From contig JACPMZ010000003.1 in NCBI GenBank assembly GCA_016185705.1, forward strand, positions 74,900-138,899: a stretch of DNA of 64,000 nucleotides, given 5' to 3'. The DNA is from Candidatus Woesearchaeota archaeon (GTDB lineage Archaea; Nanobdellota; Nanobdellia; Woesearchaeales; UBA10216). The notes under the pieces were generated by a model. The model was given only the letters and a program-made list of their open reading frames with translations. It made no database searches and was not told the DNA's origin. The position numbers were made by a program, and so were the translations under genes. Shown piece by piece: positions 12,945 to 42,881 of this stretch (position 1 is the first letter of the stretch; each line of letters opens with the position of its first letter).

Positions 12945-13120
12945 CCAATCACCTTATTTATGTTTATATAAGCGTAAATATCCAGGTATATAAAGTTTTC
13001 TCTGACCTGTCCAGTGACCAGTGGAAAAAATAAAATAAGCGAGTCGTTACTTCGCTCCATTTTGCCTGCAACACCCTAAGTTTACGCCTGAGGATGCTTT
13101 CCTGTTCTGAAGGTGGCAAA

Positions 13121-13175
13121 ATGACGCTTTTTAGAAAATCCGTCATAACTACTTTCAAATGATGAAACATTTATA
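13121..13175. repeat. right copy of perfect 55-bp direct repeat; here it supplies the 5' end of the downstream methyltransferase ORF
   Basis: identical to 9515-9569. Confidence 0.9.
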
Positions 13176-14112: not shown

Positions 14113-14237
14113 AGATAGAATGTGCTGAGTGATGCCTCTTACCAGGGCGTGGCTGTTCAGGAAGCTGTTATCGGCTATTTCTGTCCCACGCCCAAGACAA
14201 ACATTTATATACAATCTGTTACAAAAAGCAAGCTTAC

Positions 14238-17200
14238 TTGAGAAAAGAGGCCATATTAATGGAAGCCAGGGAAATCGCTATTATTTCGGCAGCATTTTTT
14301 CTGCTTATAGTGCTTGTATTTGCAGCCACGCCCGAGGCAGAGATGATTGTGTTTGATGACGTCCTGCAGAACGGGTTCAAGACAAACGAGTGGGAAGCGC
14401 CTGACGGGGCAACGTGCATCCTGAGCACAGCTTATACAGCAGAGAAGGCATCCGGAACTGCTTCAATACAGACAAACCTCAACAACTACTGCACAGTTTT
14501 CCTTTACAGGGATATAACCTTTGACATAGCTGATTACACGCAGGTGGAGTTTGACATATACGGCAGCAGCCCGTCGCTTACAGAATTTAACGTCAAATTG
14601 GCGACCAACTCCTACCAAACGACTGGAAGCATTGTGCCGATATCCGATTACGTCACAGTCTCAAACAAGTGGCAGCACGTAACAATACCCCTGAAAGACT
14701 TCAGCGTGGAATCCGGAACAAAAATTGCCGGAATACAATACAGGGATGCAGGAATCACAGGGCGGGGAAACGTGCTGCTTGATAACGTGAGGTTCGTCAA
14801 GATGAAGGACACCACAGGGCCTGTTCTGCAATCAGCTTCCATAACAACACAGGACTCAGTGAGGATAGACTTTGACGAGGGGCTTGATGCCACAGCCGCG
14901 AATCCAGGCAATTACCTAATCTCATCACTGACTGACTCTGCATTCGTCTTGCCCCTGGCGCCGGCGTCAGCAGAGCTGCTGAACCAAAAAGGCGTATCGC
15001 TCAAACTAAGCAAAGAGCTCAAGAACGGACACACATACATCATAGTTGTCAACAATGTAAAAGACCTGGCTGGCAACGCCATTACAGCAGGCTCATCCAT
15101 CAGCCTGCCTGTAACAATATCAGGCGTTGCGCTGAATGTGGACGCATCCAGAACCATAAGGCCCTTCAACAGCAAGATGAGGGGCGTCCAGCTGGCATGC
15201 TGGATGCACGAGCAGGGAAACAAGCCAAGCCCTGAAAATGCAGCGAACCTTGCCGAACTGACCAAACCGCTGAAGCCGGGCATAATAAGATACTGCGGCG
15301 GCTTGTGGGCTAACAACGTCGGCTGGGACAGAACCGGGCAGGCCCCCAAGGACGGGATGTGGAACTGGGTGAATCCGGACACAGCAGCAAAGCTTCCATA
15401 CAGCTACACCCACGCATACAAAGCAGCGTGGATTGACAGCCTGGGAAGGTTCCTTAAGGAAGTAGGAGCAGAGGCAATGATACAGGCAAACCTCTGCGAC
15501 AACAATCCACAAATGTGGGCAGACATGGTGAAGTATGCGAATGTTGAGAAGGGCTATGGCTTCAAATACTGGGAGCTAAGCAACGAAATTGACCTTGAAG
15601 ATGCCATAAGGGAAAAATGCTTCGGAACAACAGACAAGACTGCCTCAGCCAGGAACTATTCCAAGAGGTTTGCAGCATATACCAAAGCAATGAAGGCAGT
15701 TGACCCAAACATAAAAACAATGGGCCCTGTTACTGCAAACTACTACAGCGCACCTACTTGGTTCCCGCCGCTGGCAAATGAAATGAAAAGCCAGGGACTG
15801 AACCTTGACGTGATGTCATGGCACTGGTACCAAATATTTGATTTTTCAACAGACCCAAGCACAGAAGTGTACGATTATGGTTCACTGGCAGCGCTTCTGA
15901 ACTACAACACAGCGCTGACAAGCCAAAACAGCCCTTACAACAAAGGAGATGTCATACAGCCGCCCAGCCACGGAACAGCAGAGCACTGGGTGTACAGGTC
16001 AAGACGGGCATTCGCAGAGCACACAGCCAAAGATGCACGCTTATATGCAGCTGACTTTCCCAACGCAGAATTAGCGGTAACAGAAGCAAACTCCCACGGC
16101 TCTGATTTCACCACCTCGCTGAACGGCAACCATCTCGGGGCTGTGCGAATGGCAGACTACCTCGGAAGAGCTGCATACAACGGGCTGGACATAAACATCT
16201 GGTATGAGCTGTACGACGGCGGGGCAACCGGAATTTCTTACGGGCTGATTTATCCGGACAATGATGCCAACCCGACAAAGCTCTTCATCAGGCCAACATA
16301 TTACCCTATGCTGATGTACGCCCAGTGGTTCGGCGACACAATGGTGCAGTCTTCAACTGCTGACCCGGCACAAAATGTAGTGGTGTGGGCAAGCACCGAC
16401 ACCTTAGATTCAGGCAAACTAAAACTAATGCTCATAAACTTCAACTCAACAGTTGTAACCGCAACCGTAAACATAGCAGGGTTTACGCCCAAGAGCGGCA
16501 AATACTACCAGATGGCAAGCGCAAACCCAGCCAACCTGGACCGCTCCATGGCCAACAGCGGCGGAGAAACAACCATCAACGGATACAAACTGGATACAAC
16601 AGCAAGCAAAATCCAGCAGTCAATTGACGCCATAGCCCCAATCGCGCCATCAATAAGCGGAAACACGATAACGCAAACCCTTCAGCCGTATTCTGTAACT
16701 GCAATAGTGCTGAGTTCCACAGAATCCGTATCGCCGCAACCCCAGCAGCCAGCGCCACAGCTGCCGGATACCGCTGCGCCAATAATTTCAGCCTACTCAC
16801 CGGCAAAAGGAGAGTCCAATGTCAACAACAACAAGGCAATCAGCATGCTCATCCAGGACACAGGCGCCGGAGTGGATAAAAATTCAATAGAGCTGTTTGT
16901 CAAGGGCGTGAAGAAAACACCAGCAATAACAGGAACCAGCGCAGCATACACAGTAACATACACGCCAGAAATGCCATACCTGAACGCCGAGATAATCAAT
17001 GTACTGGTTAAAGCAAGCGACCTCTCAGGCAATCCGGCAATTGACAGCTACTACTTCACCATAGGAGGGGCTGCAATATGCTCGGACGGCATCTGCTCCT
17101 ACAGCGAAAGGGAAAGCTGCCCGCAGGACTGCGCATACGTAAAAGGAAACTTCAGCGACAGCAGCCACAACTTTGAAAACTTCAAGATGCGGATAAACAG

Positions 17201-18467
17201 CAGCGAAGACATCTACAAATACTTTGACCGCGAATTGCCCGTAGAATTCCTTGAAGAAATAAGCGGCTCAACAATTCCAAGAATAAAGTTTGACTTCAAA
17301 TTTGACATGGGCAAATTCCTTAATTTCAATGAGCTTCATTACTTCAAGCAGAAAGCAGCGGACAGAAGAGGATACCTTTACATGTCAGGGCTCAACGTTT
17401 CAGGCGAACTGAAGAGCTTCCTCATAGACCGGGTTAATGGAAGCAGCAATGCTGTCTGCATAAAGGATGCGGAAATCACAAACATAAGCGAAGTGAGCGA
17501 AGCATGCAGCCAGGCATCAGAGCAGCTTCTGATATGCGACGGGAAGCAGCGAAACGGCTACAAATGCGTGACGCAAGGCAACTACTTCAACGTGTCCGGA
17601 TTAACGCACTCAGCTGTGGTGGAATACGTGGCAGCATGCGGAAACAGCAGATGCGATGAGAGCGAATCATGCTCAAGCTGCAGCGCGGACTGCGGGGCAT
17701 GCGCTGCTGCAAGCACACCAAGCAGCTCATCCGGCGGAGGCGGAGGCGGGGGAGGCGGCGGTGGCGGTGGCGGCGGAGGCAGCAGCCAAAAGCTTTCAGA
17801 AAAAGTAACGCTGGACGGCACTCTTGAAGCAGGAAGCAGCGGAAGCTTTGCATTCAGCAAGCACATAGATGCCCTTTCAGTATACCAAGTCGATGTTGTA
17901 ACAAACTTCCAGGCAACAACACCGTCATTAACGCTGCAGGAAGTTTCGCTGTCAAAAGAAGTGCCAAGCGCCACTGACGCAGGCGAGAAGCTGTATTCAA
18001 TTGTCCAGCTTTCCCGCATCGGGCTAAGCGATGACGTTAAATCAGACATCAGGTTTAAGATAAAAAGCGAGTGGTTTATAAAAGAAGAGGTGGACGCCTC
18101 AACCATAGTGCTGAAAAAGCTGTCAGGAGACAAATGGATAAAGCTGCCAACCATTCATGCAGCCGAAGAACCGGGATACCATGCTTACAGCGCAAGCCTC
18201 ACAGGACTGTCAATATTTGCAGTGGTCGGAGGGCAGACAAAGCCAGCGCCGCAGCAGCAAACCATACAGCAGGAAAAAAGAGCTGACAAGTACGCCAATG
18301 AAATCAATGAGATTAAAGCTGAACCAATAGTCAGCAAGAAAAGGTCGTTCTTTGCGCTGAAGCAGGTATTCTCAATAATCGTGATTATGGCAGCCCTGCT
18401 CTTAGTATACGAGGTTGTGCATAAGATAAGGAAACGCAACCGGTCAGCAGAGTCCTACATTAACTGA
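14238..18467 (+). CDS. large surface protein (1409 aa): signal peptide, glycoside-hydrolase-like TIM-barrel region (YWELSNE), Ig-like domains, PQ-rich linker, Cys-rich module, (Gly)16 linker, C-terminal TM anchor with basic tail
   Basis: N-term MEAREIAIISAAFFLLIVLVFAA; WELSNEID resembles GH clan-A acid/base NE(P) motif; ICSDGICSYSERESCPQDCAY; C-term FFALKQVFSIIVIMAALLLVYEVVHKIRKRNR. Confidence 0.8.
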   Translation: MRKEAILMEAREIAIISAAFFLLIVLVFAATPEAEMIVFDDVLQNGFKTNEWEAPDGATCILSTAYTAEKASGTASIQTNLNNYCTVFLYRDITFDIADYTQVEFDIYGSSPSLTEFNVKLATNSYQTTGSIVPISDYVTVSNKWQHVTIPLKDFSVESGTKIAGIQYRDAGITGRGNVLLDNVRFVKMKDTTGPVLQSASITTQDSVRIDFDEGLDATAANPGNYLISSLTDSAFVLPLAPASAELLNQKGVSLKLSKELKNGHTYIIVVNNVKDLAGNAITAGSSISLPVTISGVALNVDASRTIRPFNSKMRGVQLACWMHEQGNKPSPENAANLAELTKPLKPGIIRYCGGLWANNVGWDRTGQAPKDGMWNWVNPDTAAKLPYSYTHAYKAAWIDSLGRFLKEVGAEAMIQANLCDNNPQMWADMVKYANVEKGYGFKYWELSNEIDLEDAIREKCFGTTDKTASARNYSKRFAAYTKAMKAVDPNIKTMGPVTANYYSAPTWFPPLANEMKSQGLNLDVMSWHWYQIFDFSTDPSTEVYDYGSLAALLNYNTALTSQNSPYNKGDVIQPPSHGTAEHWVYRSRRAFAEHTAKDARLYAADFPNAELAVTEANSHGSDFTTSLNGNHLGAVRMADYLGRAAYNGLDINIWYELYDGGATGISYGLIYPDNDANPTKLFIRPTYYPMLMYAQWFGDTMVQSSTADPAQNVVVWASTDTLDSGKLKLMLINFNSTVVTATVNIAGFTPKSGKYYQMASANPANLDRSMANSGGETTINGYKLDTTASKIQQSIDAIAPIAPSISGNTITQTLQPYSVTAIVLSSTESVSPQPQQPAPQLPDTAAPIISAYSPAKGESNVNNNKAISMLIQDTGAGVDKNSIELFVKGVKKTPAITGTSAAYTVTYTPEMPYLNAEIINVLVKASDLSGNPAIDSYYFTIGGAAICSDGICSYSERESCPQDCAYVKGNFSDSSHNFENFKMRINSSEDIYKYFDRELPVEFLEEISGSTIPRIKFDFKFDMGKFLNFNELHYFKQKAADRRGYLYMSGLNVSGELKSFLIDRVNGSSNAVCIKDAEITNISEVSEACSQASEQLLICDGKQRNGYKCVTQGNYFNVSGLTHSAVVEYVAACGNSRCDESESCSSCSADCGACAAASTPSSSSGGGGGGGGGGGGGGGGSSQKLSEKVTLDGTLEAGSSGSFAFSKHIDALSVYQVDVVTNFQATTPSLTLQEVSLSKEVPSATDAGEKLYSIVQLSRIGLSDDVKSDIRFKIKSEWFIKEEVDASTIVLKKLSGDKWIKLPTIHAAEEPGYHAYSASLTGLSIFAVVGGQTKPAPQQQTIQQEKRADKYANEINEIKAEPIVSKKRSFFALKQVFSIIVIMAALLLVYEVVHKIRKRNRSAESYIN
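17733..17780 (+). repeat. (GGN)16 trinucleotide tract encoding 16 consecutive Gly (poly-Pro on antisense)
   Basis: ggcggaggcggaggcgggggaggcggcggtggcggtggcggcggaggc. Confidence 0.9.
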
Positions 18468-25392: not shown

Positions 25393-26799
25393 ATGGACAA
25401 ATACGCAAGATTTCAAGAGCTGGTCAATTCAGCTGCTCAAGACTTCTCAAAGACAAGCAAAAACGAAATCATAAGGGTAGTTTCCCATCTCGATGCAGAC
25501 GGGCTGAGCAGCGCAGCAGTCCTGATAAAGGCGTTAAGCAGCGACAACAGAAAATACTCGCTGTCCACCGTGCACCAGCTGGATGAAGACGAAGTCAGGC
25601 AATTATCCTTTGAGCCGTACGCCTGCGTGTTCTTTACAGACATAGGCTCCGGCCAGCTCAGCCTGATAAAAAAGCATCTGAAGGGCAAAAAAGTTTTCAT
25701 ACTGGACCACCACCAGCTCGAAGAAACGGACGGAGGCAGCAACATTGTCCACGTAAATCCGCACCTGGCCGGGGTGAATGGCAGCCGAGAGGTGAGCGGC
25801 TCAGGCGTAACGTACCTGTTTGCAAAAGCGCTGAACGCTGCAAACGTCAACCTTGCTCACATTGCATTGCTCGGAGCAATGGGCGATATGCAGGAAAACA
25901 GCGGCTTTGAAAAGCTGAATGCGCAGATACTTGAAGATGCCAAAGAATCCGGAAAGATAAAAGTCATAACCGGGCTGAGGGTATTCGGAGCTCACACAAG
26001 GCCTCTGCACAAGGTCATAGAGCGCAGCAGCGAACACCCAATACCGGGAATAACAGGCAGCGAAAGCGCTTCCCTGATGTTTTTGCAGCACCTCGGCATA
26101 AATCCGCGGAACGGCGAAGGGTGGAAGAAGCTGACAGACCTCACAGACGAAGAACTCCAGAAACTGGCGACAGCCATAATAGTAAGACGGCTTGACCAGG
26201 AAAAGCCCGAAGCAATACTTGGCCCGGTGTACATCCTGCAAAACGAAAAAAAAGACTCTCCACTGAAAGATGCGAAGGAATTCTCATCAGTATTAAATGC
26301 GTGCGGCAGGCTGGGCAAAGCCTCAGCAGGAATAGGAGCGCTGCTCGGACACAGCGGGAGCAAGGAGCAGGCGATAAAAACGCTGCGAAGCTACAAGCGC
26401 CACATCGCAAATGCATTAACCTGGTATAAAACAGCAAAAAAAGGCATAATCAAGGGAAAAGGATACATAATAATAAACGCCGAGGAAAACATAATGCCCA
26501 CAATAATAGGAACGCTTGCCTCCATGCTCTCCAAATCAGGAGAAATAGAAGAAGGCAGCATAATCCTGTCAATGGCGCAGACAGACAAAGACAAAACCAA
26601 AGTCAGCATAAGGATAAGCGGCAACAAAGATGTTAATTTAAAAGAAATAATAAATAAAATAACAATAACAGTAAACGGCATGGCAGGCGGCCACCACCAG
26701 GCGGCAGGAGCACTAATAGATACTGCCAGAGAAACAGAGTTCATTGAGGCAGCCAAAAGAATCCTTGAAATGCAGGCGATGGAGGAGAAGGTGGCTTAG
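25393..26799 (+). CDS. archaeal RecJ-like DHH-family phosphoesterase/exonuclease (DHH + DHHA1)
   Basis: SHLDADGLSSAAV (DHH region) and NGMAGGHHQAAGA (DHHA1 GGGH motif). Confidence 0.85.
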   Translation: MDKYARFQELVNSAAQDFSKTSKNEIIRVVSHLDADGLSSAAVLIKALSSDNRKYSLSTVHQLDEDEVRQLSFEPYACVFFTDIGSGQLSLIKKHLKGKKVFILDHHQLEETDGGSNIVHVNPHLAGVNGSREVSGSGVTYLFAKALNAANVNLAHIALLGAMGDMQENSGFEKLNAQILEDAKESGKIKVITGLRVFGAHTRPLHKVIERSSEHPIPGITGSESASLMFLQHLGINPRNGEGWKKLTDLTDEELQKLATAIIVRRLDQEKPEAILGPVYILQNEKKDSPLKDAKEFSSVLNACGRLGKASAGIGALLGHSGSKEQAIKTLRSYKRHIANALTWYKTAKKGIIKGKGYIIINAEENIMPTIIGTLASMLSKSGEIEEGSIILSMAQTDKDKTKVSIRISGNKDVNLKEIINKITITVNGMAGGHHQAAGALIDTARETEFIEAAKRILEMQAMEEKVA

Positions 26800-27470
26800 T
26801 AAACGTAGCTGTCCCTTCTTGCGTGTTTGTAGATGAGCAGTCCAACTGCAGCTATGACTGCCACGCTGACCAAGATTATCGCGTATGTGATTAGATTGTT
26901 GCGGTCATCCCTGCCCTCCTGACTTGACATTTCAACTTTTTCAATAAAGCAATCTGCATCCACTGAAGAATCACAATCAGGGTCACATACGTTATCCTGA
27001 AGCTCCACGCAGTAACCATCCGCCGTACCTGCAGGGCAGTCTTCACTACACGATCCATAGTTCTCCTGATCCTGGCAAATGTTGTCGCCACAAACGTTTG
27101 CAAATCTTAAGACGTCTATTTCTGCTAACGTTGCTCCATCGGGCGCTGACAGACGTATCAGCGCCCCATCCCGAAAGTAAGCAGCGGAAACAAGATTAGA
27201 TTCAATAGCCATACTGTGATGATCTGTGATAACTACTTCCGGATCGTTCGTTGGACTATGTGTGTGATAGTCAAACCCCTCCTCCAATCCAAACGTAAAT
27301 GTATCTAATACTTCGTTATCCTGCGATATAAGAAAATACCGGTAGTCACCTGGCAAGTTTGATATAAATCCTTCACCAATACTGACATCAGCGACCACAT
27401 CCCCGCTATCGCCTGAAAGTTCAATCCGATAAATTTTATCAGTTGCACTTACGAACGTACTTAACGCCAA
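26796..27470 (-). CDS. secreted Cys-rich protein with C-terminal TM anchor (signal peptide likely extends upstream with non-ATG start, ...KKIFAVACIFLALSTFVSA)
   Basis: Cys-rich module CGDNICQDQENYGSCSEDCPAG...CDPDCDSSVDADC then ITYAIILVSVAVIAAVGLLIYKHARR; module resembles the one in 14238-18467 protein. Confidence 0.65.
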   Translation of the reverse strand: MALSTFVSATDKIYRIELSGDSGDVVADVSIGEGFISNLPGDYRYFLISQDNEVLDTFTFGLEEGFDYHTHSPTNDPEVVITDHHSMAIESNLVSAAYFRDGALIRLSAPDGATLAEIDVLRFANVCGDNICQDQENYGSCSEDCPAGTADGYCVELQDNVCDPDCDSSVDADCFIEKVEMSSQEGRDDRNNLITYAIILVSVAVIAAVGLLIYKHARRDSYVY

Positions 27471-27505
27471 AAATATGCATGCAACTGCAAAAATTTTTTT
27501 GTTAA

Positions 27506-30500
27506 TTATCCTACACCACCTGTTGCCAATTTATCACTCAATACCTTTTTTTCTATTGGACTGTAACCATTTACCAAATAACGATCCGAACACATCACAT
27601 TTACCGATGTTGGCCATGGCTTGAAGCGGTCTGAATGAGCACCGCCTTTTCTAACGGTAACCCCCCCTACTACTTTAACTCCCGCATCTCCGCACCCGGG
27701 GTAGCAACCCATATCTCCCCACTTAAGATATTCTGGATTATTCCATTCTGCGCACGGCTGGTCTGCTGATACCTGAATTTCACCGCAAGCCGGATTGTGG
27801 AATCCAGGATCTGCCGGAACTAGTAGTTCAGGGTTACCACCACAAGTATGTGGGAAATTCCCAAGCGCATGACCCAATTCGTGCAGCATTACCGGCTTTA
27901 CAACATCATCGGCGCTTCCATGCCAGTCCGGACATCTGCCGTCTGAAGCGCATGGCGGAATCCCACTTGGAACAACTACCATATTGTATCCACCGCTGGC
28001 CTCTCCGCTGTCCTTTGCGACCACAATAATCTGGTCGACCGGACAAGTCATAGCAATCTCACGGATTTTGGCAGTGTGAGCTCTACAGTCTTCCGTGTAA
28101 TCGTCAAAAATCAGTTCAGGATCATACCGGCCCACCTTGTAAACACTAAATAGATCTAAGCTGGTACTGAATGGCTCAATTTCTCTGAAAGTATCGGCAA
28201 TTTCATCTGCATAATAATCAAACCGAGCACTTTCACTCTCTTTAAACAAGCAGGGCACAACAACAAAATTAACATTATTGCCGCTACCAAGTATGCGTTC
28301 ACATTGCGCTGAGGAAACAATCAACTCTGCAGTGTCCAGCACATGGTAATTATCATCCGAATTCCTACCTAACACGCTAAACTCATGAACACCCGAACCA
28401 TAAGATGAGGTATCAAATGAAACGGCAAAGACTTCATCCCCCGCATCCCCGTCACCATGCCCGCCATCATCGTACAGATCTAAGTATTTACCCTCTGTAT
28501 TACTTCTCAGCAAAATATCCTTGCCACCAAAACCTTTAGCCAGAACGACTGCCGTGACATACCCTCCCCCGACAACATTCTCAGGGTCTAAGGCTAAGAT
28601 AACAGTTGGCTGGATAGTTTTCACTGAAAAGTCTGTAACCTTTTGATTTTGATTAAAGCCTTTTCCAACGACTCCGGCAAAACCATTTATCAACTCAATA
28701 TCGTCCACTACTATGTCCCACTCATCTGGTTCAATCTCGTTTATACCCCACACTTTTGCCCTCATCGTATCACCTTCGAACATGATTATTACATATACTT
28801 CGTCGCCACCATTAAACTTCTTGGTGACAATAGGTGCTATATAAGTAAACTGTGCTATATCAGTAACCGGGTAGTTCTTTTTTTCGTTAATAGTGAACCC
28901 CAGCAGCTTCTGGTTGGTCCGAAGTTCGACATTTAGGCAATAACCTGTTATTGCATCTATGCTCATCCTACCACACAGCATTAACAGTTCAAAAGATTCA
29001 TCCGGCAAATCTATTCGCCCAGATATTATGCCATCTGAAAATTTGTGATTCAAGTTGATTATTGCAGCATAATTATTATCCTTAAGAGTTATTGTATCTT
29101 TCTCAATTGCCCATTCCCCTTCTATACTCCGCCACCCACCTAAGCACAATCCTCCAGCAGCGCAAGCGCTTCCGTCACCACACAAACACTGCTTTTCTAC
29201 TACCCCCCTGCAACTCCCATCCGGCATAGCAGTATCGCCTAAAGGACAGCCGCACTGTCTATTATCACTCATTAATCTTCCGTTATTGCAGAAGTATGGC
29301 TTTGTGGAGGAGCATTCTCCGTTTGCCGTCCCGTCACCGCATTTGCTCTCATGTTCAAGAGAAGCAAATTCATTTTTACCGTAACTATAGAAGCCAACAT
29401 ATCCCGTGGAATACTCCCTGTCCTTTCCAAAAAGAGTCCAACCAAAAGGTTCAGGCAATCCTTTTTCCCAGACTTTTCCCAGAAACAGGTCGCCTTCTGA
29501 TTTAAATCTCATTGAACTGCCTTTCACGCCACTAAAGCCCGCACTTAGATCGATGGTGGAGCTCCCAAGCTTCTTAATCTCAACCCAGTTGTCGTCGGTT
29601 TGCCTTAAACAGTATGCTTCACCATTGTCCCTGATTCTGCCGCAAATACCCCTATAATTCCCAGTTGCAAGAGCATCTTCAAATGTGGTGGTTATGTCAA
29701 AATCACGCACAATCCCTATATCCTGAACAGCAAGAATTCCTGAGATGCCGGTACCAGTATGCAGAGGATTGGCACTGCTGCAATCCCATATGCCAGCTAT
29801 GCTTTTAAATCCCCATAATTTACATGAAGCCAGTGGGCATTCTGCACTCCCAGAGAATGCTCCCGGTGTTTTGCATGAATCGGCTTTCTCAACACGCACT
29901 TGTATCTTTTCGCCTTCAGGAAACGGAGAAAGCGCATCAAAATTTCTGATAGAGTTCTGTGCCACCACAAGTGTCCTGCATTCATCACTTCCATAATTCG
30001 CGCCTGCCGGGCATTCCAATACCAAATATTCCTTGGCACCCTCTACTTCACTCCATGAGGATTCCAAAGTGTAACGTTCACCATCATAGGATATTTCGCA
30101 TTGACTAATTTCAGGAACCTCACATTCAGGCAGCTCAATGCATTCCCCAACACAAAGATACCCCTGCGGGCATGTCTTTGGAAACTGATTGCCAGTAACA
30201 CTCACGCAGTCAGCATAACCACTGCACGGCTTTGGTCTGACATTATATGAGTATTTCTGAGCAAAGTCCTCACAAACAGCGCCGCATCCGGTGTCAAGAA
30301 GGCAACTGTAAATTTCAGTGTCTATTCCCGGCACTCCTAACTGACCTAAATCCTCAACTGTGCACACTTCATTTGCAGCGCAACTGGTATCACCACATTC
30401 AACGCCGCATTTGCCTGCATTTTGTCGGCCAGTATCAGTATCTCCAGGCAGGCTTGGCGGGGCATCTGCCCTGCAGGCACCTTCCCTGCACTTGCTATCG

Positions 30501-31687
30501 CTATCGCAGTTGTATGTCGCTACCTTTATTTCGTTGTTATCGCAATAAACTTCTTGCAGCACTTTGCCTGCTATGCAAAAATCAGGGACAACAATGCAGG
30601 CGCCGCCAGAATCATCAGAATAACATTCTGTCGCCTCTCCCTTAACCTCAATCTTGAAGCCGCTGTCAGAATCAACGCAGATCTGATTTGACTTGGCTGC
30701 AGGGCAGCTACAATCATTATTGCAATTCGTGCAAGACTCAGAGGATTCACATACGTTGTTTCCACACTGGTTACAGTCCTTGGTGAGAAGTTTATTGCTA
30801 TCATCGCAGTCATTTCCCTTAGCGCAGTTTACTCCGAAGCCGTCACCATCGTTGTCAACGCACTTTTTTCGATTTAAGCATTTTGCCGGGTTGCCAAGTA
30901 CTGGCGCCCCGCCGATAGTTGTTGTAACGCAAAGAAATCCCTCATTGCACTGGTTATTTGGTTCACAACAATTTTGATTAGGGCCGCCACATTCTGTCTT
31001 AACCGGGCAGCTGCCACATGTGCTGGTTTCCTGGCAGCAGATTCCAGACTGGCAGTCCACATTCCCCTTACATGACACGCCGTCAGGAGCCTGGCACTGG
31101 CTGTTAGGACAGGTGTTAAAACACCCACCGCAGTAAGAGCACTCTGTCAGCCCAGAACAGCAGCCGAGGGTCTTTGGCTGCTGCCCCCACTCACCGCAGG
31201 AGCAGTCCTTAGTGCCGGTAACGGTTCTCGTATTTCCGCAGTTGCTTTCCTGACTGAACTTTTCACCCTTGCAAACGCTGGAACGATCGGGCGACCATGA
31301 CGAATCAACGCAACACGGCGCATTGCCGCATTCTCCGCAACTGCTCTGCAGAGAAGAGCCGCAGTGCCTGTTGCAGTCATCAAATCCGCCGCAGCCACCG
31401 CCATAAGCGCAGCCATCCTTAAGACTGGTAATAGGGCAAGTGCCGCCGCAGCCGTCACTGAAGCCACAGAAGGGATAAGAGCAGGAAGGTGTGCACGGCT
31501 CTTGTTCAATTGGCTTAACAGATTCGTGCTTACACTGGCCAATGCAGTCAACATAATTGTCCAGTTCCGGCTCGCAGCCGCAATGGTCAGCCTCGGTAGT
31601 AGAGGAATTCGCCAAGAAAAAAACAGATGTAGCTACCAACAATACGCCAAATACAAATAATTTCCCAACTACCTGTGTTAGGTGCAT
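27506..31687 (-). CDS. giant (1393 aa) secreted cysteine-rich protein with C-terminal metzincin-type zinc-metalloprotease motif
   Basis: signal peptide MHLTQVVGKLFVFGVLLVATSVFF; >120 Cys in repeated CxxC/CGxC modules; HELGHALGNFPH = HExxHxxGxxH zinc-binding consensus. Confidence 0.8.
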   Translation of the reverse strand: MHLTQVVGKLFVFGVLLVATSVFFLANSSTTEADHCGCEPELDNYVDCIGQCKHESVKPIEQEPCTPSCSYPFCGFSDGCGGTCPITSLKDGCAYGGGCGGFDDCNRHCGSSLQSSCGECGNAPCCVDSSWSPDRSSVCKGEKFSQESNCGNTRTVTGTKDCSCGEWGQQPKTLGCCSGLTECSYCGGCFNTCPNSQCQAPDGVSCKGNVDCQSGICCQETSTCGSCPVKTECGGPNQNCCEPNNQCNEGFLCVTTTIGGAPVLGNPAKCLNRKKCVDNDGDGFGVNCAKGNDCDDSNKLLTKDCNQCGNNVCESSESCTNCNNDCSCPAAKSNQICVDSDSGFKIEVKGEATECYSDDSGGACIVVPDFCIAGKVLQEVYCDNNEIKVATYNCDSDSKCREGACRADAPPSLPGDTDTGRQNAGKCGVECGDTSCAANEVCTVEDLGQLGVPGIDTEIYSCLLDTGCGAVCEDFAQKYSYNVRPKPCSGYADCVSVTGNQFPKTCPQGYLCVGECIELPECEVPEISQCEISYDGERYTLESSWSEVEGAKEYLVLECPAGANYGSDECRTLVVAQNSIRNFDALSPFPEGEKIQVRVEKADSCKTPGAFSGSAECPLASCKLWGFKSIAGIWDCSSANPLHTGTGISGILAVQDIGIVRDFDITTTFEDALATGNYRGICGRIRDNGEAYCLRQTDDNWVEIKKLGSSTIDLSAGFSGVKGSSMRFKSEGDLFLGKVWEKGLPEPFGWTLFGKDREYSTGYVGFYSYGKNEFASLEHESKCGDGTANGECSSTKPYFCNNGRLMSDNRQCGCPLGDTAMPDGSCRGVVEKQCLCGDGSACAAGGLCLGGWRSIEGEWAIEKDTITLKDNNYAAIINLNHKFSDGIISGRIDLPDESFELLMLCGRMSIDAITGYCLNVELRTNQKLLGFTINEKKNYPVTDIAQFTYIAPIVTKKFNGGDEVYVIIMFEGDTMRAKVWGINEIEPDEWDIVVDDIELINGFAGVVGKGFNQNQKVTDFSVKTIQPTVILALDPENVVGGGYVTAVVLAKGFGGKDILLRSNTEGKYLDLYDDGGHGDGDAGDEVFAVSFDTSSYGSGVHEFSVLGRNSDDNYHVLDTAELIVSSAQCERILGSGNNVNFVVVPCLFKESESARFDYYADEIADTFREIEPFSTSLDLFSVYKVGRYDPELIFDDYTEDCRAHTAKIREIAMTCPVDQIIVVAKDSGEASGGYNMVVVPSGIPPCASDGRCPDWHGSADDVVKPVMLHELGHALGNFPHTCGGNPELLVPADPGFHNPACGEIQVSADQPCAEWNNPEYLKWGDMGCYPGCGDAGVKVVGGVTVRKGGAHSDRFKPWPTSVNVMCSDRYLVNGYSPIEKKVLSDKLATGGVG

Positions 31688-31692
31688 TAACC

Positions 31693-32052
31693 TTAGTCCT
31701 TCTCCAAACTGTAGGCAGCTTTGATAGCCACTATGATTGAAGCAGGCACAACAAAAGTAAGTATTGCCAGATAAATCCCTTCAAGATAAGCGCCGATGTT
31801 CGGAACCTGGCCGAGAACTGAGCCGCCGAGCGAAGTTACTATAATCAATGCGAGCGTAGCAATGAGAAACTCCCTCGTTTCCTTCAAGGTAATGTTAAGC
31901 AAGCCAACGATTATGCCCAAAGCAATCAGCGCAGAACTGAGAGTAACTTCCAGCTCATTCGGATAAATAATGCCTCCAACAACAGCCAGCGAAACACCCA
32001 TAAGGAACAGAACGCTGCCAATCTTCAGAGGGTGAGGTTTCGCCATATGCAA
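31693..32052 (-). CDS. small polytopic membrane protein (3-4 TM), first gene of the Cys-rich secretome operon
   Basis: hydrophobic helices; 5-nt spacing to downstream giant gene. Confidence 0.55.
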   Translation of the reverse strand: MHMAKPHPLKIGSVLFLMGVSLAVVGGIIYPNELEVTLSSALIALGIIVGLLNITLKETREFLIATLALIIVTSLGGSVLGQVPNIGAYLEGIYLAILTFVVPASIIVAIKAAYSLEKD

Positions 32053-32090
32053 CTTATTGGCAGGACTGTTTTTAAAGGTTTCGGAAACGG

Positions 32091-32234
32091 GGTGAAGTCA
32101 AGTTAAGTGGCAAAACCGTCGCATCCTTCCCTGATTTTTTTCTCCCCCCCTTAAAAAATAAGGGGGGGAGAAAAAAATCAGCCAAGCAGGCATCGGCAAG
32201 CTCAGGATTGCAGGACACATAACTTGGCATTACC
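32091..32234. mobile_element. MITE-like element copy A (144 bp): TIRs ggtgaagtcaagtt / aacttggcattacc, central (C)7/(G)7 palindromic hairpin 32131-32182, flanked by 9-bp TSD cggaaacgg (32082-32090 and 32235-32243)
   Basis: direct observation of TIR, TSD and near-identity to copy at 52841-52982. Confidence 0.75.
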
Positions 32235-33508: not shown

Positions 33509-34456
33509 TCACTCCCTAACCTCAGCGTCATCAATAATTCCGTCTGAGTCAAGGTCAACGCCTTCAACAACCTTTGCAGCTATTTTTTTGTTTCTTACGT
33601 TGCCTGCGCTAATCTCCTTAAAATGCTTTAAGAAAGCAACGATGGCAGCCCTTGTTCCTGAGTAGCGCTTGCCTGCAACAACCAAAACGCTTTTTTCGCT
33701 GTTGAACGGAGATTTTGCCTTAACAATGATGCCTGACTCATCGCTTGGGTAAACTGAATCTGATACAGTGCTTCTGATGCTCCAGTTCTCTGCCTTATCA
33801 AACCTTATTGGAAGCTTCTGGTTAACCGCGCCTGTAACTTTGTTGACAATCGGGCCGCCTATCAGAATTAAATGATTGCCTTTCAATTCCTGCTCCTGCA
33901 CTTCAGTATCAAGCTTAACGTAAAGCTTCGGAACATAATTAAGGAATGTGCCCAGAAACAACGCAAGGTCCATGCCGTAATAGCCGTCGCGGGAACGCGC
34001 TTTGTCAGGCCCGTGCGGGTCAGGGCTGCCAACTATAATTAATGCGCTGAGCTTTCCGTTATCTATGAAAGGATGCAGAAACTCAGAGTCTGACTTCAGC
34101 TGAATCTGCGTGGGCTCAAGCTCCCTGAACTTAATAACTACTGCGGGCTTCTCAACAGCGTAAAACTTAGCAACAGCGCCCTGCCGCGTTTCCTGCCTGA
34201 CAACCTTAACGATGCCTGCGCTATGCAAGTTGCGGATGTGATAATAAATTTTCTGCTCATGAACCTTAAGGGCTTTAGCTATTTCTACCGGATACATCGG
34301 CTTTGAAGAAAGCAGCTTGATTATTTTTATGGCCAGCTCAGAGCTGACGCTGCCTGCATTCTTCGCATCCACCTCGCATGCAGGAAGCGAATACACCCCA
34401 TCTGCCCTTTTGTCAACCGCAAACATAGCAACCACTTGTCTAAACTGCCTGAGCAT
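33509..34456 (-). CDS. ArsR-type winged-helix transcriptional regulator fused to uncharacterised C-terminal alpha/beta domain
   Basis: MYPVEIAKALKVHEQKIYYHIRNLHSAGIVKVV wHTH; C-terminal LIIVGSPDPHG...LILIGGPIVN. Confidence 0.6.
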   Translation of the reverse strand: MLRQFRQVVAMFAVDKRADGVYSLPACEVDAKNAGSVSSELAIKIIKLLSSKPMYPVEIAKALKVHEQKIYYHIRNLHSAGIVKVVRQETRQGAVAKFYAVEKPAVVIKFRELEPTQIQLKSDSEFLHPFIDNGKLSALIIVGSPDPHGPDKARSRDGYYGMDLALFLGTFLNYVPKLYVKLDTEVQEQELKGNHLILIGGPIVNKVTGAVNQKLPIRFDKAENWSIRSTVSDSVYPSDESGIIVKAKSPFNSEKSVLVVAGKRYSGTRAAIVAFLKHFKEISAGNVRNKKIAAKVVEGVDLDSDGIIDDAEVRE

Positions 34457-34505
34457 TCACTCAAAGCGCTGTTACCCTTTTCACCAGCCAACTTCCCCAC
34501 TAAAC

Positions 34506-34552
34506 TGCTTTTTTCCCTCCCCTAAAATTTAAGGGGGAGGGAAAAAAGCAGC
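34506..34552. repeat. palindromic hairpin of CCCTCCC...GGGAGGG family (ctgcttttttccctcccc TAAAATTTAA gggggagggaaaaaagcag) followed by MITE right-end-like motif gcttggaaacttacc
   Basis: perfect stem; shared flanking motif with 25224 copy. Confidence 0.8.
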
Positions 34553-38703: not shown

Positions 38704-39081
38704 ATGGCAAACATTGTAGTAGCGGATGATGAACCTGCGATAAGCGGATTTTACAGAGACGCGCTTGAAATGCTTGGGCACACTGTTTATGCGGCAGGAA
38801 ATGGAAGGGAAGCAGCATCGTTACTTGAAGAACTTACTGGTGCCGGTACTGATGTTGGGCTTGTAATCACTGATTATAATATGCCAGGCATGAGTGGAAT
38901 TGAGCTGCTCCAATTTATGAGTGAGGGGCAATATGGAATGCAGGCCATAATGATATCATCTGATTCAGATAATGCAGTGGCTGAGAAAGCGGAGAGTGCA
39001 GGGGCAGCCTTTTACAAAAAGCCAATAAGGCTGCAGGATCTAATTGAAGCAGTAGAATCAGCGCTTGCGGGAAAAAAATGA
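38704..39081 (+). CDS. stand-alone CheY-like response-regulator receiver domain (longer ORF from 38584 probably not translated)
   Basis: IVVADDEP...D(Y)NMPGMSG...K receiver motifs; ATGA overlap with downstream GH15 gene. Confidence 0.75.
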   Translation: MANIVVADDEPAISGFYRDALEMLGHTVYAAGNGREAASLLEELTGAGTDVGLVITDYNMPGMSGIELLQFMSEGQYGMQAIMISSDSDNAVAEKAESAGAAFYKKPIRLQDLIEAVESALAGKK

Positions 39082-40076
39082 TAGCCAGAAGCATACAGAT
39101 ACTTGAAAAGCTGCAGCATCCGACAGGGCTGTTCAGCGCGAGCAGCGCTGCCGGAACAGGGTATAACAAGTCATGGATAAGGGATAATGTTTATGCTGCT
39201 CTCGGCTTTGAAGCTGTGAAGGATAATGCTGCGGTGAGGAAAGCTTACCGGGCGATGCTGGACATACTTCTGAAGCACGAATACAAAATAGACTGGATGA
39301 TAAGGCAGCCAACTCCCAAAGAAGCATTCAGGTACATACATGCACGCTACAACCCGCGAACAATGGAAGAGATATATGAGCCGTGGGGCAACAAGCAGAA
39401 CGACGCAGTAGGAGCAGTGCTGTTCAAAATTGGAGAGCTTGAAAGCAAAGGCATCAGAATCATACGCAACAGCAGCGATGTCAGGATTCTGCAAAAGCTT
39501 GTAAATTATCTTGCAGCTATTGAATACTGGCACGACCGCGACAACGGAATGTGGGAGGAAAGCGAGGAGGTGCATGCTTCAAGCGTTGGAGCGTGCGTTG
39601 CCGGATTAAAAATGATTCAGAAAATTGACGGAATTGAGGTTGAGCAGCAGCTGATAAAAAAAGGGGAAGAAACACTGAATGGACTGCTGCCGGCAGAGTC
39701 AGAAACAAAGGAAGCTGATTTGGCATTGCTGTCGCTGATTTATCCGTATAATGTTGTTAATGCAATGCAGCGGGATGCGATTTTAAACAATGTTGAACAG
39801 CAACTTGCCAGGAACAGAGGAGTGATAAGGTACAAAGGCGACAAGTATTACAGCAACGGCTCAGAGGCAGAATGGTGCTTCGGATTCCCGTGGCTCGCAA
39901 TAATTTATAAAAACCTTAACAGGGCTGACAAATACGCATATTACCTTAGAAAAACCCTTGAAATCGCAAACCCGGAGGGAGAGATTCCTGAACTTTACTA
40001 CGGCAACACCGCAGAATGCAATGAGAACTCGCCGCTTGCGTGGGCTCAGTCGCTTAGCGTGGTGGCGAGCGCATAA
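39078..40076 (+). CDS. glycoside hydrolase family 15-like (glucoamylase/glucodextranase-type alpha/alpha6 barrel) protein
   Basis: SWIRDN and GMWEE motifs characteristic of GH15. Confidence 0.65.
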   Translation: MIARSIQILEKLQHPTGLFSASSAAGTGYNKSWIRDNVYAALGFEAVKDNAAVRKAYRAMLDILLKHEYKIDWMIRQPTPKEAFRYIHARYNPRTMEEIYEPWGNKQNDAVGAVLFKIGELESKGIRIIRNSSDVRILQKLVNYLAAIEYWHDRDNGMWEESEEVHASSVGACVAGLKMIQKIDGIEVEQQLIKKGEETLNGLLPAESETKEADLALLSLIYPYNVVNAMQRDAILNNVEQQLARNRGVIRYKGDKYYSNGSEAEWCFGFPWLAIIYKNLNRADKYAYYLRKTLEIANPEGEIPELYYGNTAECNENSPLAWAQSLSVVASA

Positions 40077-40191
40077 ATACGGATGCAAGCTCGCACATTC
40101 TGTTCTTCTGCAATCTTTACTGATTCTTGTTCTGCTGAAAACAGAACATTTTCACAGTTATACCATTGTGGCGGCGATGATTAAAACAGAG

Positions 40192-41901
40192 TCAGCCGGA
40201 TTTCAGCTCCTGCAGCAGCTCAATCAGCGTAGAGCAGCTCCACGCCTGACTGAGGCAGCCCTCTGCTTTTTGCTGCGACGCAGAACTCAGCTCAGAGCAG
40301 CACCCAACAGCGCCAAGCCACAGCAAATCATTGACTGAAGCATCTTTTATTTTCTTAATGTAATAGCCGTATTTTTTCCTGTTGAGCCGGGCCATAACCA
40401 CTGCTGCCAAGTTGTTTATCCAATACCAGGAATCCCCGCGATGATATGATTTGCTGTTCTCTCCAGTGTAATTTTCCTGGAAAAGCGGATGCGCCTTGTC
40501 AATGCTGGCTAAGCCGCCCCAGTCAAGCCACAAATGCGGGAGCACATTGTCAAAGCATGTTTCCCATTCTTTCTTGCTTAAAAGCTTAGGATAAGCGTAA
40601 GCTGCTATGAACACGTTCGGCCTGATGGTGAAATCAAAGGCCAAATCTGCCAGGTATTTCCTGTTCCAGAAGCCAGCCCTGGCCTTATCTGCCATCGCTG
40701 ATTCCTGATTCCTGACAGACTGTTTTTTTGACAGCAGCCAGAGAAAGTTAAGCGAAGCCAATGTCAGGGCCTGGACTTCCACCGGGAAGCCCTCCCTTCC
40801 GTTATCGCCAAAATCCGTGTCCATCCACGACTCGTTTTTGCTGCTAAAAATCAATCCGCTCCTGCCGTAAAACTCCTGCTGCCGCCCAAGCGAGTTTTTC
40901 AGAGCTGCTTTCACTTCCAAAATCTCTGAGCCGGTCAATGCCTTCGCTTCGTAAAGCTGCCTCAGCCTGAAAAAAAGCCAGCCAACTGAATCCGATGAGC
41001 CGATGCCTATGCTGGCAATCCTCCCATCCCTGCCGATCCTGCCAAGATACCTAAAAAGCAGCCTTTTGCGCAGGAGCATGCCTGCTGCAGATGAAGAAAT
41101 GACAGAGTCCCTGCTCCAATACTGATAAAACCAGGGCAGGCCTGCATAAACATCCTCAGCTGTAACAAGAGCGTCATATGAGGACTTTGCCAGCTCCAGG
41201 ACGCTGCTTTTCCTGCTCTTCTCCTGCAGGCCATGCATATGGCTGAAAACGTATTCTGACTCTGAAAGAGCAGCATCCTCGCTTAAAGCAGCTGAAAAAA
41301 CCATTTTTGAGGCATGCACAGAGAACGCCCTGTAAACATACCGTTCAGAAAGCGAGCCCCGCTGCCTGTCAAGCCTGTAATCGCGCTTCACCCAGTGGCC
41401 CAGCTTATTACAAGCGCCATCAGACCTGACGGCAAGATACAGCTTAAACTCATCCAAACCGGCTGCGGAGTCCCTGCCGTCTGTTTTTTTCACAAACTCC
41501 ACAACAAGGGCGTTGTCTTTGAAGTGTGCATTGTAGTACCTTCCCCATTCCCTGAAGTCAGAAGCAAGCATGCAGTCAAGAAAAACATCCACATCCGCAC
41601 TTTTGGAGAGGACATAGCAAAGCGAGTTGTAGTAATGCGGCAGGAAAACGCTTTCACTACGGCTGCCCCTGATTATGGCTACCCTGCCCGGATAATAATC
41701 GAACTGCTGCGGCACATCTGCTGCCTGCAGGGATTCAATGACTTTGTAAAGCCTGTTTCCAAGCGATGCAAAGTATCCGTGGTACTTGCTTTCCGGATTA
41801 GACGAGAAACTAAAAAAAGAACCTGCTCTGTTTGTAAGAATAAAGCCGGGATTGTCAATGTCCTTTGAAAGCCCCAAACATTTGTTGTTTACCGTTGCCA
41901 T
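40192..41901 (-). CDS. amylo-alpha-1,6-glucosidase / glycogen-debranching-enzyme-like (GDE_C-type) protein
   Basis: 569 aa alpha/alpha-barrel-like sequence (DSWYWINN...), in alpha-glucan gene neighbourhood; family call by context + weak motif. Confidence 0.5.
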   Translation of the reverse strand: MATVNNKCLGLSKDIDNPGFILTNRAGSFFSFSSNPESKYHGYFASLGNRLYKVIESLQAADVPQQFDYYPGRVAIIRGSRSESVFLPHYYNSLCYVLSKSADVDVFLDCMLASDFREWGRYYNAHFKDNALVVEFVKKTDGRDSAAGLDEFKLYLAVRSDGACNKLGHWVKRDYRLDRQRGSLSERYVYRAFSVHASKMVFSAALSEDAALSESEYVFSHMHGLQEKSRKSSVLELAKSSYDALVTAEDVYAGLPWFYQYWSRDSVISSSAAGMLLRKRLLFRYLGRIGRDGRIASIGIGSSDSVGWLFFRLRQLYEAKALTGSEILEVKAALKNSLGRQQEFYGRSGLIFSSKNESWMDTDFGDNGREGFPVEVQALTLASLNFLWLLSKKQSVRNQESAMADKARAGFWNRKYLADLAFDFTIRPNVFIAAYAYPKLLSKKEWETCFDNVLPHLWLDWGGLASIDKAHPLFQENYTGENSKSYHRGDSWYWINNLAAVVMARLNRKKYGYYIKKIKDASVNDLLWLGAVGCCSELSSASQQKAEGCLSQAWSCSTLIELLQELKSG

Positions 41902-41903
41902 TG

Positions 41904-42881
41904 CTAAAATTCGGACTCCCCGCGATAAAACCTGGCAGCATCCTCGGGCGAGACTGTGTTGATGGTTATGCCGCTTGACAGCTCAAAGCCAGCCCAGTTG
42001 GCTATTCTTGGAGTTACTTCAACATGAAAATGCAGGTCGCTGCCAGCAGGAGAGTAATGCAAAAAATAATTATAAGCAGCGTTCAGCTTTTTCAGCTTCC
42101 TCAAGATGCTTAAAAGGATTTTTGCAAGGGAAGAAAGCTCCTCTTTGGTTAAGTCAGCGAGCGAAGTTACATGCCTTTTCGGAAAAAGCCAGACCTCATA
42201 ATTGAACCGGGAAGCATAAGGCGCAAAGGCAACTGCATCCGCGTTTTCAAAACACCTCCTGAAGCTGCCTTTCTCAATATCAATGATTTTGCAGTACCTG
42301 CACGGCTTTCCGGAAGCATCAGCTTCCTGCTGAACAATCTGCGGAATGAATGCTGTTGCAATAATCTGCGTGTGGCTGTGCTGCAAAGAAGCGCCGCCTT
42401 TGCTGCCGTGATTCTTGAAAATGGCAACGTAATTTATGCTGCGCCTGCCGCTTAACTCAGCAATTCTGCCTTTGTATATGGAAAAAAGCTCAGCTAATTC
42501 AGCGCTGCCCAAATCCCAGAGCTGCTTTTTTTTTGAAGGGGTCTCAACAATAATCTCATGCATGCCAAAAGCATCAGCAAAGGTAAAAAAAGTGTTGTCA
42601 GTCCTTACATCAGGATTGCCGAGAATGTCAACTGCAGGAAACTTGTTTGCAAACCACCTGAAGCGCCATTTCCTGTTTCCAATGCGGCCAATTTCAGCCG
42701 GAGTAAGGTGCTCATTGCCGGGGCAGAAAAAGCACAAGTCCTTCCCGGAGCTGTCAGGTTCACGCAGCTCCTGAGGCCGCCTGCCCCTGCCAGAAGCTAT
42801 AATCACCCAGCGGTCCAGGATGTAGTCTTTTCTCAGCTCCATATTATGCCCTCTCCAAAGCAAGATTGTAGGCGTTTTCAT
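41904..42881 (-). CDS. GalT-like HIT-family nucleotidyltransferase (galactose-1-phosphate uridylyltransferase / ADP-glucose phosphorylase type); likely start MELRKDYI at 42842
   Basis: CFFCPGNE (CxxCxGxE zinc site) and HSHTQ (HxHxQ) active-site motifs. Confidence 0.75.
   Translation of the reverse strand: MKTPTILLWRGHNMELRKDYILDRWVIIASGRGRRPQELREPDSSGKDLCFFCPGNEHLTPAEIGRIGNRKWRFRWFANKFPAVDILGNPDVRTDNTFFTFADAFGMHEIIVETPSKKKQLWDLGSAELAELFSIYKGRIAELSGRRSINYVAIFKNHGSKGGASLQHSHTQIIATAFIPQIVQQEADASGKPCRYCKIIDIEKGSFRRCFENADAVAFAPYASRFNYEVWLFPKRHVTSLADLTKEELSSLAKILLSILRKLKKLNAAYNYFLHYSPAGSDLHFHVEVTPRIANWAGFELSSGITINTVSPEDAARFYRGESEF

Follow-up and report, generated by a model that had tools for sequence, protein, structure and literature searches.

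The window examined here is the whole 64,000-nucleotide stretch of contig JACPMZ010000003.1, and the analysis concerns three genes on its minus strand (A, B and C), the central one of which encodes a large mosaic protein with a C-terminal domain homologous to the igalysins (MEROPS family M64) of the metzincin clan. The genes were delimited from a listing of open reading frames (ORFs) and span positions 26796–32052:

31693–32046, minus strand: gene A, an ORF for a cysteine-free protein of 117 amino acids (aa) with four transmembrane (TM) segments.
27506–31687, minus strand: gene B, an ORF for a mosaic protein of 1393 aa, predicted to be secreted, with 104 cysteines.
26796–27470 (canonical, 224 aa) or 26796–27509 (extended), minus strand: gene C, an ORF for a small anchored protein.

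The open frame of gene A (31693–32052) comprises 119 aa, of which gene callers retain the 117 that follow from the ATG at 32046. Intervals between the genes were short, being 5 nt between A and B and 35 nt between B and C; should an ATA codon be the start of C, the latter two genes would instead overlap by 4 nt. The initial annotation of this DNA had described three co-directional genes, and this was borne out by minus-strand ORFs of 119 (or 117), 1393 and 224 aa over the span given above. The entire A-B-C locus was 100% identical across four independent assemblies (runs SRR12113383, SRR12113384, SRR12113420 and SRR12113430); its sequence is not, therefore, an artefact of assembly.

Direct annotation of B was uninformative. 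The domain scan recommended in the initial annotation produced no useful Pfam or NCBIfam match to B, and a sequence search of the PDB gave nothing useful either. The catalytic family was recognised only because an exhaustive search of representative sequences was carried out beyond direct annotation; with residues 560–1393 of B as query, this returned 476 proteins, approximately 20 of which matched residues ~1120–1393 at 30–40% identity. The family was not recovered by word-indexed searches with either B or the family profile (A2), and a scan of GTDB genomes with the catalytic domain as query was negative, while a scan of metagenomes identified a single high-GC bacterial contig with unrelated neighbouring genes. 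In all, the family defined by residues 1129–1393 of B comprised at least 19 clusters for which neither Pfam nor NCBIfam has a model, and NCBIfam produced no match to its members. The features of the domain were as follows:

27509–28303, minus strand: igalysin (M64)-like metzincin domain of B, histidine variant, residues 1129–1393 (family alignment, profile and fold).
27848–27883, minus strand: zinc-site motif HELGHALGNFPH, residues 1269–1280, with H1269, E1270, H1273 and H1280 (sequence and family alignment).
27593–27595, minus strand: candidate Met-turn, M1365 in NVMC (family alignment, and hhalign to a canonical M64 domain).

The invariant positions of the A2 alignment (H150, E151, G153 and H154) corresponded to H1269, E1270, G1272 and H1273 of B. 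The histidine seven residues past the second one (H1280 in B) and the methionine of an [IVM]MC motif (M1365) were nearly invariant, and several cysteines were conserved. Among the top 150 matches there were 19 members other than B itself; 18 of these possessed HExGHx6H, 17 had a Met-turn-like [IVM]M[CS], and nearly all began with a signal- or TM-like segment. The initial annotation had reported a literal HExxHxxGxxH in B, which was incorrect in detail: the regular expression HE..H..G..H has no match in the protein, because HELGHALGNFPH has the form HExxHxxGxxxH, in which the third histidine falls one residue later, i.e., at +7 rather than +6 from the second. This arrangement, with glycine at the classical metzincin position and the extra residue after it, was common to B and the four relatives nearest to it, and the remaining family members displayed igalysin-like spacing of the glycine.

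The suggestion of a metzincin-type protease held up on profile, fold and alignment evidence alike, and became more specific. When the A2 profile was compared with the PDB, the best matches were 3p1v (E = 5.5e-4), 4df9 (E = 2.6e-3) and the Thomasclavelia ramosa IgA proteases, followed by MMP-14 (E = 0.04). Structure prediction of the C-terminal region, as proposed initially, gave a metzincin-clan fold. The AlphaFold model on A2 had a mean predicted local distance difference test (pLDDT) of 75 and a predicted TM-score (pTM) of 0.78, with values greater than 90 in the upper subdomain, and its order of secondary structure elements (E-E-H-E-H-E-E-E-H) fits the metzincin catalytic fold. In a Foldseek comparison with the PDB, the first 17 matches were all M64 structures (E = 5e-8 to 2e-4, probability 1.00), and other metzincins (adamalysins, ADAMTS4) appeared only above E = 0.05. 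The alignment by hhalign of A2 with P0062, a protein whose canonical M64 domain passes the Pfam gathering threshold, was also strong (97.5%, E = 5.8e-12, 198 columns); it placed H1280 on the third-ligand aspartate of P0062 (HEFGHSFGGLADEY) and M1365 on the methionine of SLMN.

Several observations weigh against this assignment. No match between B and Pfam was obtained even at E ≤ 1, and the Pfam Peptidase_M64 model touched only 3 of 20 relatives, weakly (best E = 1.6e-3). The TM-scores against M64 structures (the Bacteroides enzymes) were only 0.53–0.58. In the lower subdomain, containing the region of the third histidine and the Met-turn, pLDDT fell to 45–60, so that the model does not display the zinc geometry and the Met-turn is indicated by alignment alone. 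On the profile and fold matches, the C-terminal ~265 residues of B are nonetheless a homologue of the M64/igalysin branch of the metzincin clan with a similar predicted fold. On the evidence of the family alignment, the catalytic family is a distinct, uncurated, igalysin-like subfamily with a putative histidine ligand where igalysins have aspartate.

Igalysins are metzincins whose zinc motif, HExxHxxxGxxD(EY), is longer by one residue, a feature also of CLCA proteins (PMC12237041; bioRxiv 10.1101/2025.10.18.683246). The characterised members (PF09471: the T. ramosa IgA peptidase, BF3526 [4DF9/9QDI] and BACOVA_00663 [3P1V]) provided the best fold and profile matches to B, which resembles them in its strand-helix-strand entry (VxxVPxGF...EPY.SN.DkFsvY), in an active-site helix with HExGH, and in a third ligand placed seven residues past the second histidine, one more than in classical metzincins. 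It also shares with them a Met-turn, an Ig-like domain directly N-terminal to the protease and the lack of an obvious pro-domain. It differs from igalysins in that the putative third ligand is histidine rather than aspartate, and in that the DEY positions, where the igalysin glutamate binds a second zinc and the tyrosine acts as a switch, are occupied by H-T-C (family consensus H-[TSP]-C). In the subgroup of B, moreover, the glycine occupies the classical position with the extra residue following it; the protein is not detected by the Pfam M64 model, its lower subdomain is different and rich in cysteine, and it is archaeal with a huge cysteine-rich N-terminal half.

Classical metzincins (astacins, matrix metalloproteinases and adamalysins) have HExxH, a glycine at +3 from the second histidine, a histidine as third ligand and a downstream methionine in common with B, and MMP-14, snake-venom metalloproteinases and ADAMTS4 were weakly matched by profile or by fold. 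In B, however, the third histidine is at +7 and not +6, and the matches were far weaker than those to M64 for both sequence (E of at least 0.04, against 5e-4) and fold (E of at least 0.06, against 5e-8). The architecture of B has a precedent, because P0062, an archaeal mosaic M64 protease, combines its parts in the same order: cysteine modules of the CxDGT type, an Ig-like DDGxHxDG domain, and the protease. Homology between the two catalytic domains extends to the lower subdomain, where they share the cysteines of NC, CxxW and GCYxGC, but P0062 retains HEFGHSFGGLADEY and is recognised by Pfam as M64, while it lacks the two lectin-like domains and the 590-residue N-terminal region that are found in B. 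These and the other non-catalytic parts of B are listed here:

31586–31687, minus strand: signal-peptide-like N-terminus, residues 1–34 (hydropathy; n/h/c layout read by eye).
29828–31585, minus strand: region of disulfide-type modules, residues 35–620 (cysteine density; modules in common with the protein P0001 and with a giant protein of locus L086).
29348–29827, minus strand: ConA-like (CBM66/galectin-like) beta-sandwich domain 1, residues 621–780 (AlphaFold model and Foldseek).
29147–29347, minus strand: cysteine module, residues 781–847, of the type CxDGTxxGxCSxxKPxYCxxGxLxxxCxxCGCP (exhaustive search).
28598–29146, minus strand: ConA-like beta-sandwich domain 2, residues 848–1030 (paralogue of domain 1).
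28304–28597, minus strand: Ig-like domain with YLDLYDDGGHGDGDAGDEVFA, residues 1031–1128 (NCBIfam and jackhmmer).

The AlphaFold model of ConA-like domain 1 (alignment A3) had an overall pLDDT of 71, with core blocks of 79–96, and its best Foldseek matches were to the carbohydrate-binding module (CBM) 66 structures 4b1m and 4b1l (E = 1.4e-5), then to the C-terminal domain of a glycoside hydrolase (GH) of family 43, galectins, GH16 and LamG. A guess at LamG/ConA-like domains in the middle of the protein was thus well founded. Domains 1 and 2 aligned with one another (E = 3e-5, with the motif KVW..EP..W), and in jackhmmer searches both recruited a single domain family marked by KVWxxGxxEPxxW, for which there was no Pfam match, 3keto-disac_hyd and Laminin_G included. 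On the model of the first copy, both regions (residues 621–780 and 848–1030) are domains of the ConA-like lectin fold, a beta-jelly-roll. They have the fold of the lectin domains of CBM66/DUF1080 type, but differ from these in belonging to the unannotated KVWxxGxxEPxxW family and in having no match to the two Pfam models just named.

The module of ~45 residues at 781–847 accounted for most of the 476 matches to the exhaustive search, with up to 35 matching stretches per protein among the best of them; in one such protein, P0003, it was without Pfam coverage. The Ig-like domain carries a DDGGHGDGDAGD loop. Its homologues, according to jackhmmer, include the DDGxHxDG repeats of the protein P0141 and, in P0062, the Ig-like domain immediately ahead of the canonical M64 domain. 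Residues 1069–1097 of this domain scored 24.5 bits with the NCBIfam model choice_anch_X (NF041940), where the cut-off is 25.

According to hydropathy, B has a single hydrophobic segment, at the N-terminus (residues ~10–27), and no other TM segment. The N-terminus consists of MHLTQVVGK, a hydrophobic core of 17 residues and then NSSTTEA|D; hydropathy and the TEA|D site fit a Sec signal peptide. The core could represent a cleaved Sec-type signal or, alternatively, a signal anchor. Cysteines are concentrated beyond this point, with 76 of the 104 located in residues 35–620 (13% of that region). The initial annotation had counted more than 120 in repeated CxxC/CGxC modules, a description that requires correction: CxxC occurs five times and CGxC three times, too rarely to be units of a repeat. 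The modules that do occur in residues 35–620 are of the types WSPx4VCxGxxFxQx3CGxxRx3GTK, DxDGDG...DCDD, CGNNVCESSESCTNCNNDC (30710–30766) and DSDSG...KG...C, and no Pfam match was found in this region. One N-terminal module was 58% identical over 62 aa to the giant of L086 (E = 2e-13). Some of the modules are also present in P0001, a partial relative and the only one found when full-length B was used in the word-indexed search.

A cysteine module was said initially to be common to C and to an unrelated surface protein encoded at 14238–18467. A six-frame translation of the whole window was searched with the pattern C[GS][DN]x1-2Cx3-9C(xxC)?xxDC, which produced exactly four matches, whereas composition-preserving shuffles of each protein gave 0–2 matches per 2000:

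30710–30766, minus strand: cysteine module CGNNVCESSESCTNCNNDC in B (pattern match; a copy overlooked in the initial annotation).
27036–27092, minus strand: cysteine module CGDNICQDQENYGSCSEDC in C (pattern match).
17079–17132, plus strand: cysteine module CSDGICSYSERESCPQDC, copy 1 in the 1409-aa protein, residues 948–965 (pattern match).
17637–17693, plus strand: cysteine module CGNSRCDESESCSSCSADC, copy 2 in the 1409-aa protein, residues 1134–1152 (pattern match).

The module itself is therefore real. Its supposed position immediately before a C-terminal TM anchor did not hold for the protein at 14238–18467, a surface protein of 1409 aa with GH, CBM and PGF-pre-PGF elements, where the two copies lie about 220 and 410 residues ahead of the TM segment (~1370–1398). 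A third giant surface protein of the 64-kb window is indicated by an open frame of at least 2905 codons (1–8715, minus strand), which runs off the left edge; this has a hydrophobic, TM-like N-terminus and the Ig-like domains Big_13, Big_7 and Big_3_3.

Genes A and C were correctly characterised at first as a membrane protein and a cysteine-rich, C-terminally anchored protein, since A has four hydrophobic segments and C has a C-terminal TM segment. The family of A is unannotated, with a conserved motif GLLNxTxKExxxFL but no significant Pfam or NCBIfam match for A, and its homologues (P0153–P0159), at 36–60% identity, came from archaea and from Kangiella. Protein C comprises a signal-like N-terminus, a beta-rich domain of ~110 aa, CGDNICQDQENYGSCSEDC, a second cysteine cluster, an acidic linker, the TM segment and a basic tail. 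Read from its first canonical start (TTG at 27470), C is without a signal peptide; the frame 5' of this codon encodes IINKKIFAVACIFLALSTFVSA|TDK, a textbook signal-peptide-like sequence, and contains no ATG, GTG or TTG. The only candidate starts here are ATA at 27509–27507, which overlaps the TAA of B as ATAA, and ATT at 27506, with a Shine-Dalgarno-like GGTGGTG run just upstream. One of these two codons is the probable true start, and C would then probably be made through coupled re-initiation at a non-canonical codon overlapping the stop codon of B. The sequence around the start of C (27470–27512) was identical in the four assemblies.

Two other proposals concerning C were considered and rejected. 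A fusion of B and C through frameshifting or read-through would leave the signal peptide encoded by the upstream codons of C without use in the interior of the product; there is no slippery heptamer, and the four assemblies agree. A known protease-inhibitor fold for C was discarded when a PDB sequence search with C found nothing.

The term 'secretome operon', applied to the locus initially, rests mainly on gene spacing, i.e., the short gaps on a common strand; the arrangement itself was repeated in only one of five informative contexts of other A homologues. Upstream of gene A, a single promoter-like element was read from the sequence:

32069–32076, minus strand: TATA-like box TTTAAAAA, ~26 nt 5' of the ATG of gene A.

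This is the sole box of its kind at the locus, and the 5 nt between A and B hold no promoter-like AT box. Since TTTAAAAA occupies the usual position of an archaeal TATA box, it may act as a promoter and give a leaderless A-B-C transcript, and B is probably co-transcribed with A and C from it. Scans for sigma-70 promoters and intrinsic terminators gave counts no different from chance, which is to be expected of an archaeon. Between genes, a palindrome (CTGATTTTTTTCTCCCCCCC..GGGGGGGAGAAAAAAATCAG) recurs at 32131–32181 and 52880–52927, with a variant at 34505–34551; it has a perfect 23-bp stem (-46 kcal/mol, z = -7), and the two full copies have common flanks (..CCGTCGCA.. / ..GCAGGCATCGGCAAG). 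One copy is positioned between the promoter of gene A and the upstream gene. The palindrome could be a terminator, an element resembling repetitive extragenic palindromes (REP) or a protein-binding element.

The single context in which the trio recurred was L086 (positions 10380–15016), a locus of GCA_002505845.1, an archaeal metagenome-assembled genome (MAG). Here, an A homologue with 60% identity heads the series. The next gene lies 4 nt further on, and its product of 235 aa carries the module CNADGVCDSGIGENQQTCPQDC in addition to a signal peptide, an acidic linker and a TM segment. The third gene encodes a cysteine-rich giant of at least 1207 aa that has the N-terminal module of B. The contig ends inside this gene; the fragment gave no Pfam match, and its last ~170 residues gave no PDB match. 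Nothing in the flanks of L086 was syntenic with the window besides the trio. Linkage of the three genes in two genomes is suggestive but not established, because the four other A homologues occur in unrelated contexts and because P0001 has no such neighbours. Two findings count against a conserved trio in particular: C and its counterpart in L086 have almost no sequence in common (E = 0.012), and in four of the five informative contexts the A homologue had neither a giant nor a C-like neighbour.

That A, B and C have no common function, A being a housekeeping small membrane protein that merely lies upstream, is a possibility, though less likely than not. The A homologues adjoin genes as diverse as a membrane pyrophosphatase, a cation antiporter, a PGI-like gene and a Kangiella pilus-like cluster; and P0001, the only other giant found with the modules of B, has no A-like or C-like gene in its neighbourhood. 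This explanation must nevertheless contend with the 5-nt gap between A and B, which has no promoter-like box, and with the recurrence of the trio in L086 without any other conserved flank. A may be a bystander. At the other extreme, the three genes could form a lineage-specific surface-display cassette of DPANN archaea, in which A and an anchored cysteine-module protein accompany an interchangeable, cysteine-rich giant enzyme. The anchored protein, perhaps with the four-TM protein, would dock the giant or assist in its export through shared cysteine modules in the manner of cohesin and dockerin, and the histidine-type igalysin would represent one of a set of exchangeable warheads directed at host envelopes. 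This is an unlikely scenario as a whole.

Turning to the function of B itself, it is probably an active extracellular metalloprotease. Export is proposed because of the single N-terminal hydrophobic segment, the signal- or TM-like beginnings of other family members and the presence of cysteine modules like those in secreted archaeal giants; either a Sec-type signal or an uncleaved signal anchor would place the whole of B outside the cell. There, H1269, H1273 and H1280 would hold Zn2+, E1270 would activate a water molecule as general base, and M1365 would pack beneath the zinc site. The lectin-fold and cysteine-rich modules may direct the protease towards surfaces or polymers that bear glycans, where glycoproteins would be cleaved. 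Sugar binding is not universal among ConA-like folds, which tells against such targeting. It is highly improbable that B is an adhesin whose C-terminal domain is a dead protease serving for binding only: most of the protein is indeed built from adhesion-type modules and its motif fits neither the metzincin nor the igalysin consensus, but the two histidines, the glutamate, the +7 histidine and the methionine are all intact in B and conserved in its family.

With an active protease as the preferred reading, the target of B may be sought in environmental protein, in a host envelope or among the cell's own surface proteins. The first of these, a nutritional exoenzyme, is possible but doubtful. B, as one of several extracellular hydrolases encoded in the region, would dock on matrices of polysaccharide or glycoprotein (biofilm or detritus, for example) and would free peptides for an organism with limited biosynthesis. 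Such a role finds support in the neighbouring 1409-aa surface protein, which has GH44-like, CBM30 and Big_5 domains along with the same cysteine module, in the CBM66-like fold, which is typical of polysaccharide-targeting enzymes, and in the fusion of family members to PA14, CARDB, PKD and beta-helix domains, an architecture like that of degradative exoenzymes. It is less easily reconciled with the narrow specificity of characterised igalysins; in addition, B has no C-terminal anchor, although an uncleaved N-terminal anchor might retain it, and no peptide transporter genes were noticed adjoining B.

A rather unlikely role, though the one put forward in the initial annotation, is that of a tool for host interaction: B, displayed by an episymbiotic DPANN archaeon at its cell surface, would bind host glycans through its lectin and cysteine modules and cut host S-layer or envelope proteins for attachment or access to resources. 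It is one among several roles that a secreted mosaic of lectin and protease domains would allow. The architecture of lectin plus protease suits this role, as do the three giant surface proteins of the window and what can be gathered about the organism. The window encodes an archaeal uS15 (with the S13/S15 N-terminal domain), a GAN-type DHH-CID protein and the PGF-pre-PGF surface protein, a DPANN-like context. The best matches to GlmS (60261–61994) were from Ca. Micrarchaeota MAGs (60–62%), followed by Peribacteria/Peregrinibacteria of the candidate phyla radiation (CPR; 55–58%). Run SRR12113421, numbered between the source runs, belongs to a study of episymbiotic CPR and DPANN in groundwater at Modesto, California, and the adjacent numbers suggest that the assemblies come from the same project. 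A DPANN-type archaeon is a plausible source, though the evidence for it is thin, and the episymbiont-type archaeon supposed in the initial annotation can be tentatively retained. Two points are set against a host-directed role: the taxonomic placement derives from one marker prone to horizontal gene transfer, and ordinary bacteria also have the catalytic family, joined there to unrelated domains and located in unrelated contexts. Literature searches on cysteine-rich giants of DPANN archaea returned nothing relevant. Action on the cell's own surface proteins is improbable.

The fold and chemistry of the protease in B are already known. What is new is a putative histidine-ligand, igalysin-like subfamily that is absent from Pfam and NCBIfam, the fusion of such a domain to two ConA-like domains and a cysteine-module region of 590 residues in an archaeon, and a possible three-gene cassette. 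If correct, this would represent an unannotated branch of igalysin/CLCA-type metzincins that keeps the longer zinc motif while using the classical histidine ligand, and would bear on the relation of the aspartate-ligand igalysins to other metzincins; a few dozen hypothetical proteins could also be annotated. To our knowledge, how such small-genome archaea act on their neighbours and surroundings is largely unknown, and B would be a concrete candidate, open to testing, for a glycan-targeted protease acting outside the cell of one such groundwater archaeon. The analysis also flags several widespread cysteine-rich modules and a ConA-like family that are not covered by Pfam or NCBIfam.

Other features of the window were recorded in passing. 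The likeness of GlmS to both CPR and Micrarchaeota sequences suggests gene sharing across domains among episymbiont lineages. A glycogen/alpha-glucan cluster occupies 39078–50885, with GH15, GDE_C, GH57, glycosyltransferase (GT) families GT4 and GT5 and a GT-HAD fusion; within it, a GT3-type glycogen synthase (42844–44613) matched the largely eukaryotic Pfam model Glycogen_syn (E = 1.4e-145). A restriction-modification pair at 9780–12626, consisting of an Eco57I-like N6 methylase and an AccI-like endonuclease, is situated in a low-GC stretch between 10 and 14 kb (35–37%, whereas the value elsewhere is about 47%), pointing to an island of recent acquisition. Finally, a 315-aa protein encoded at 33509–34456 on the minus strand combines ArsR/TrmB-type helix-turn-helix domains with a match to S_layer_C ('S-layer like family, outer domain'), an odd association for a transcription factor.

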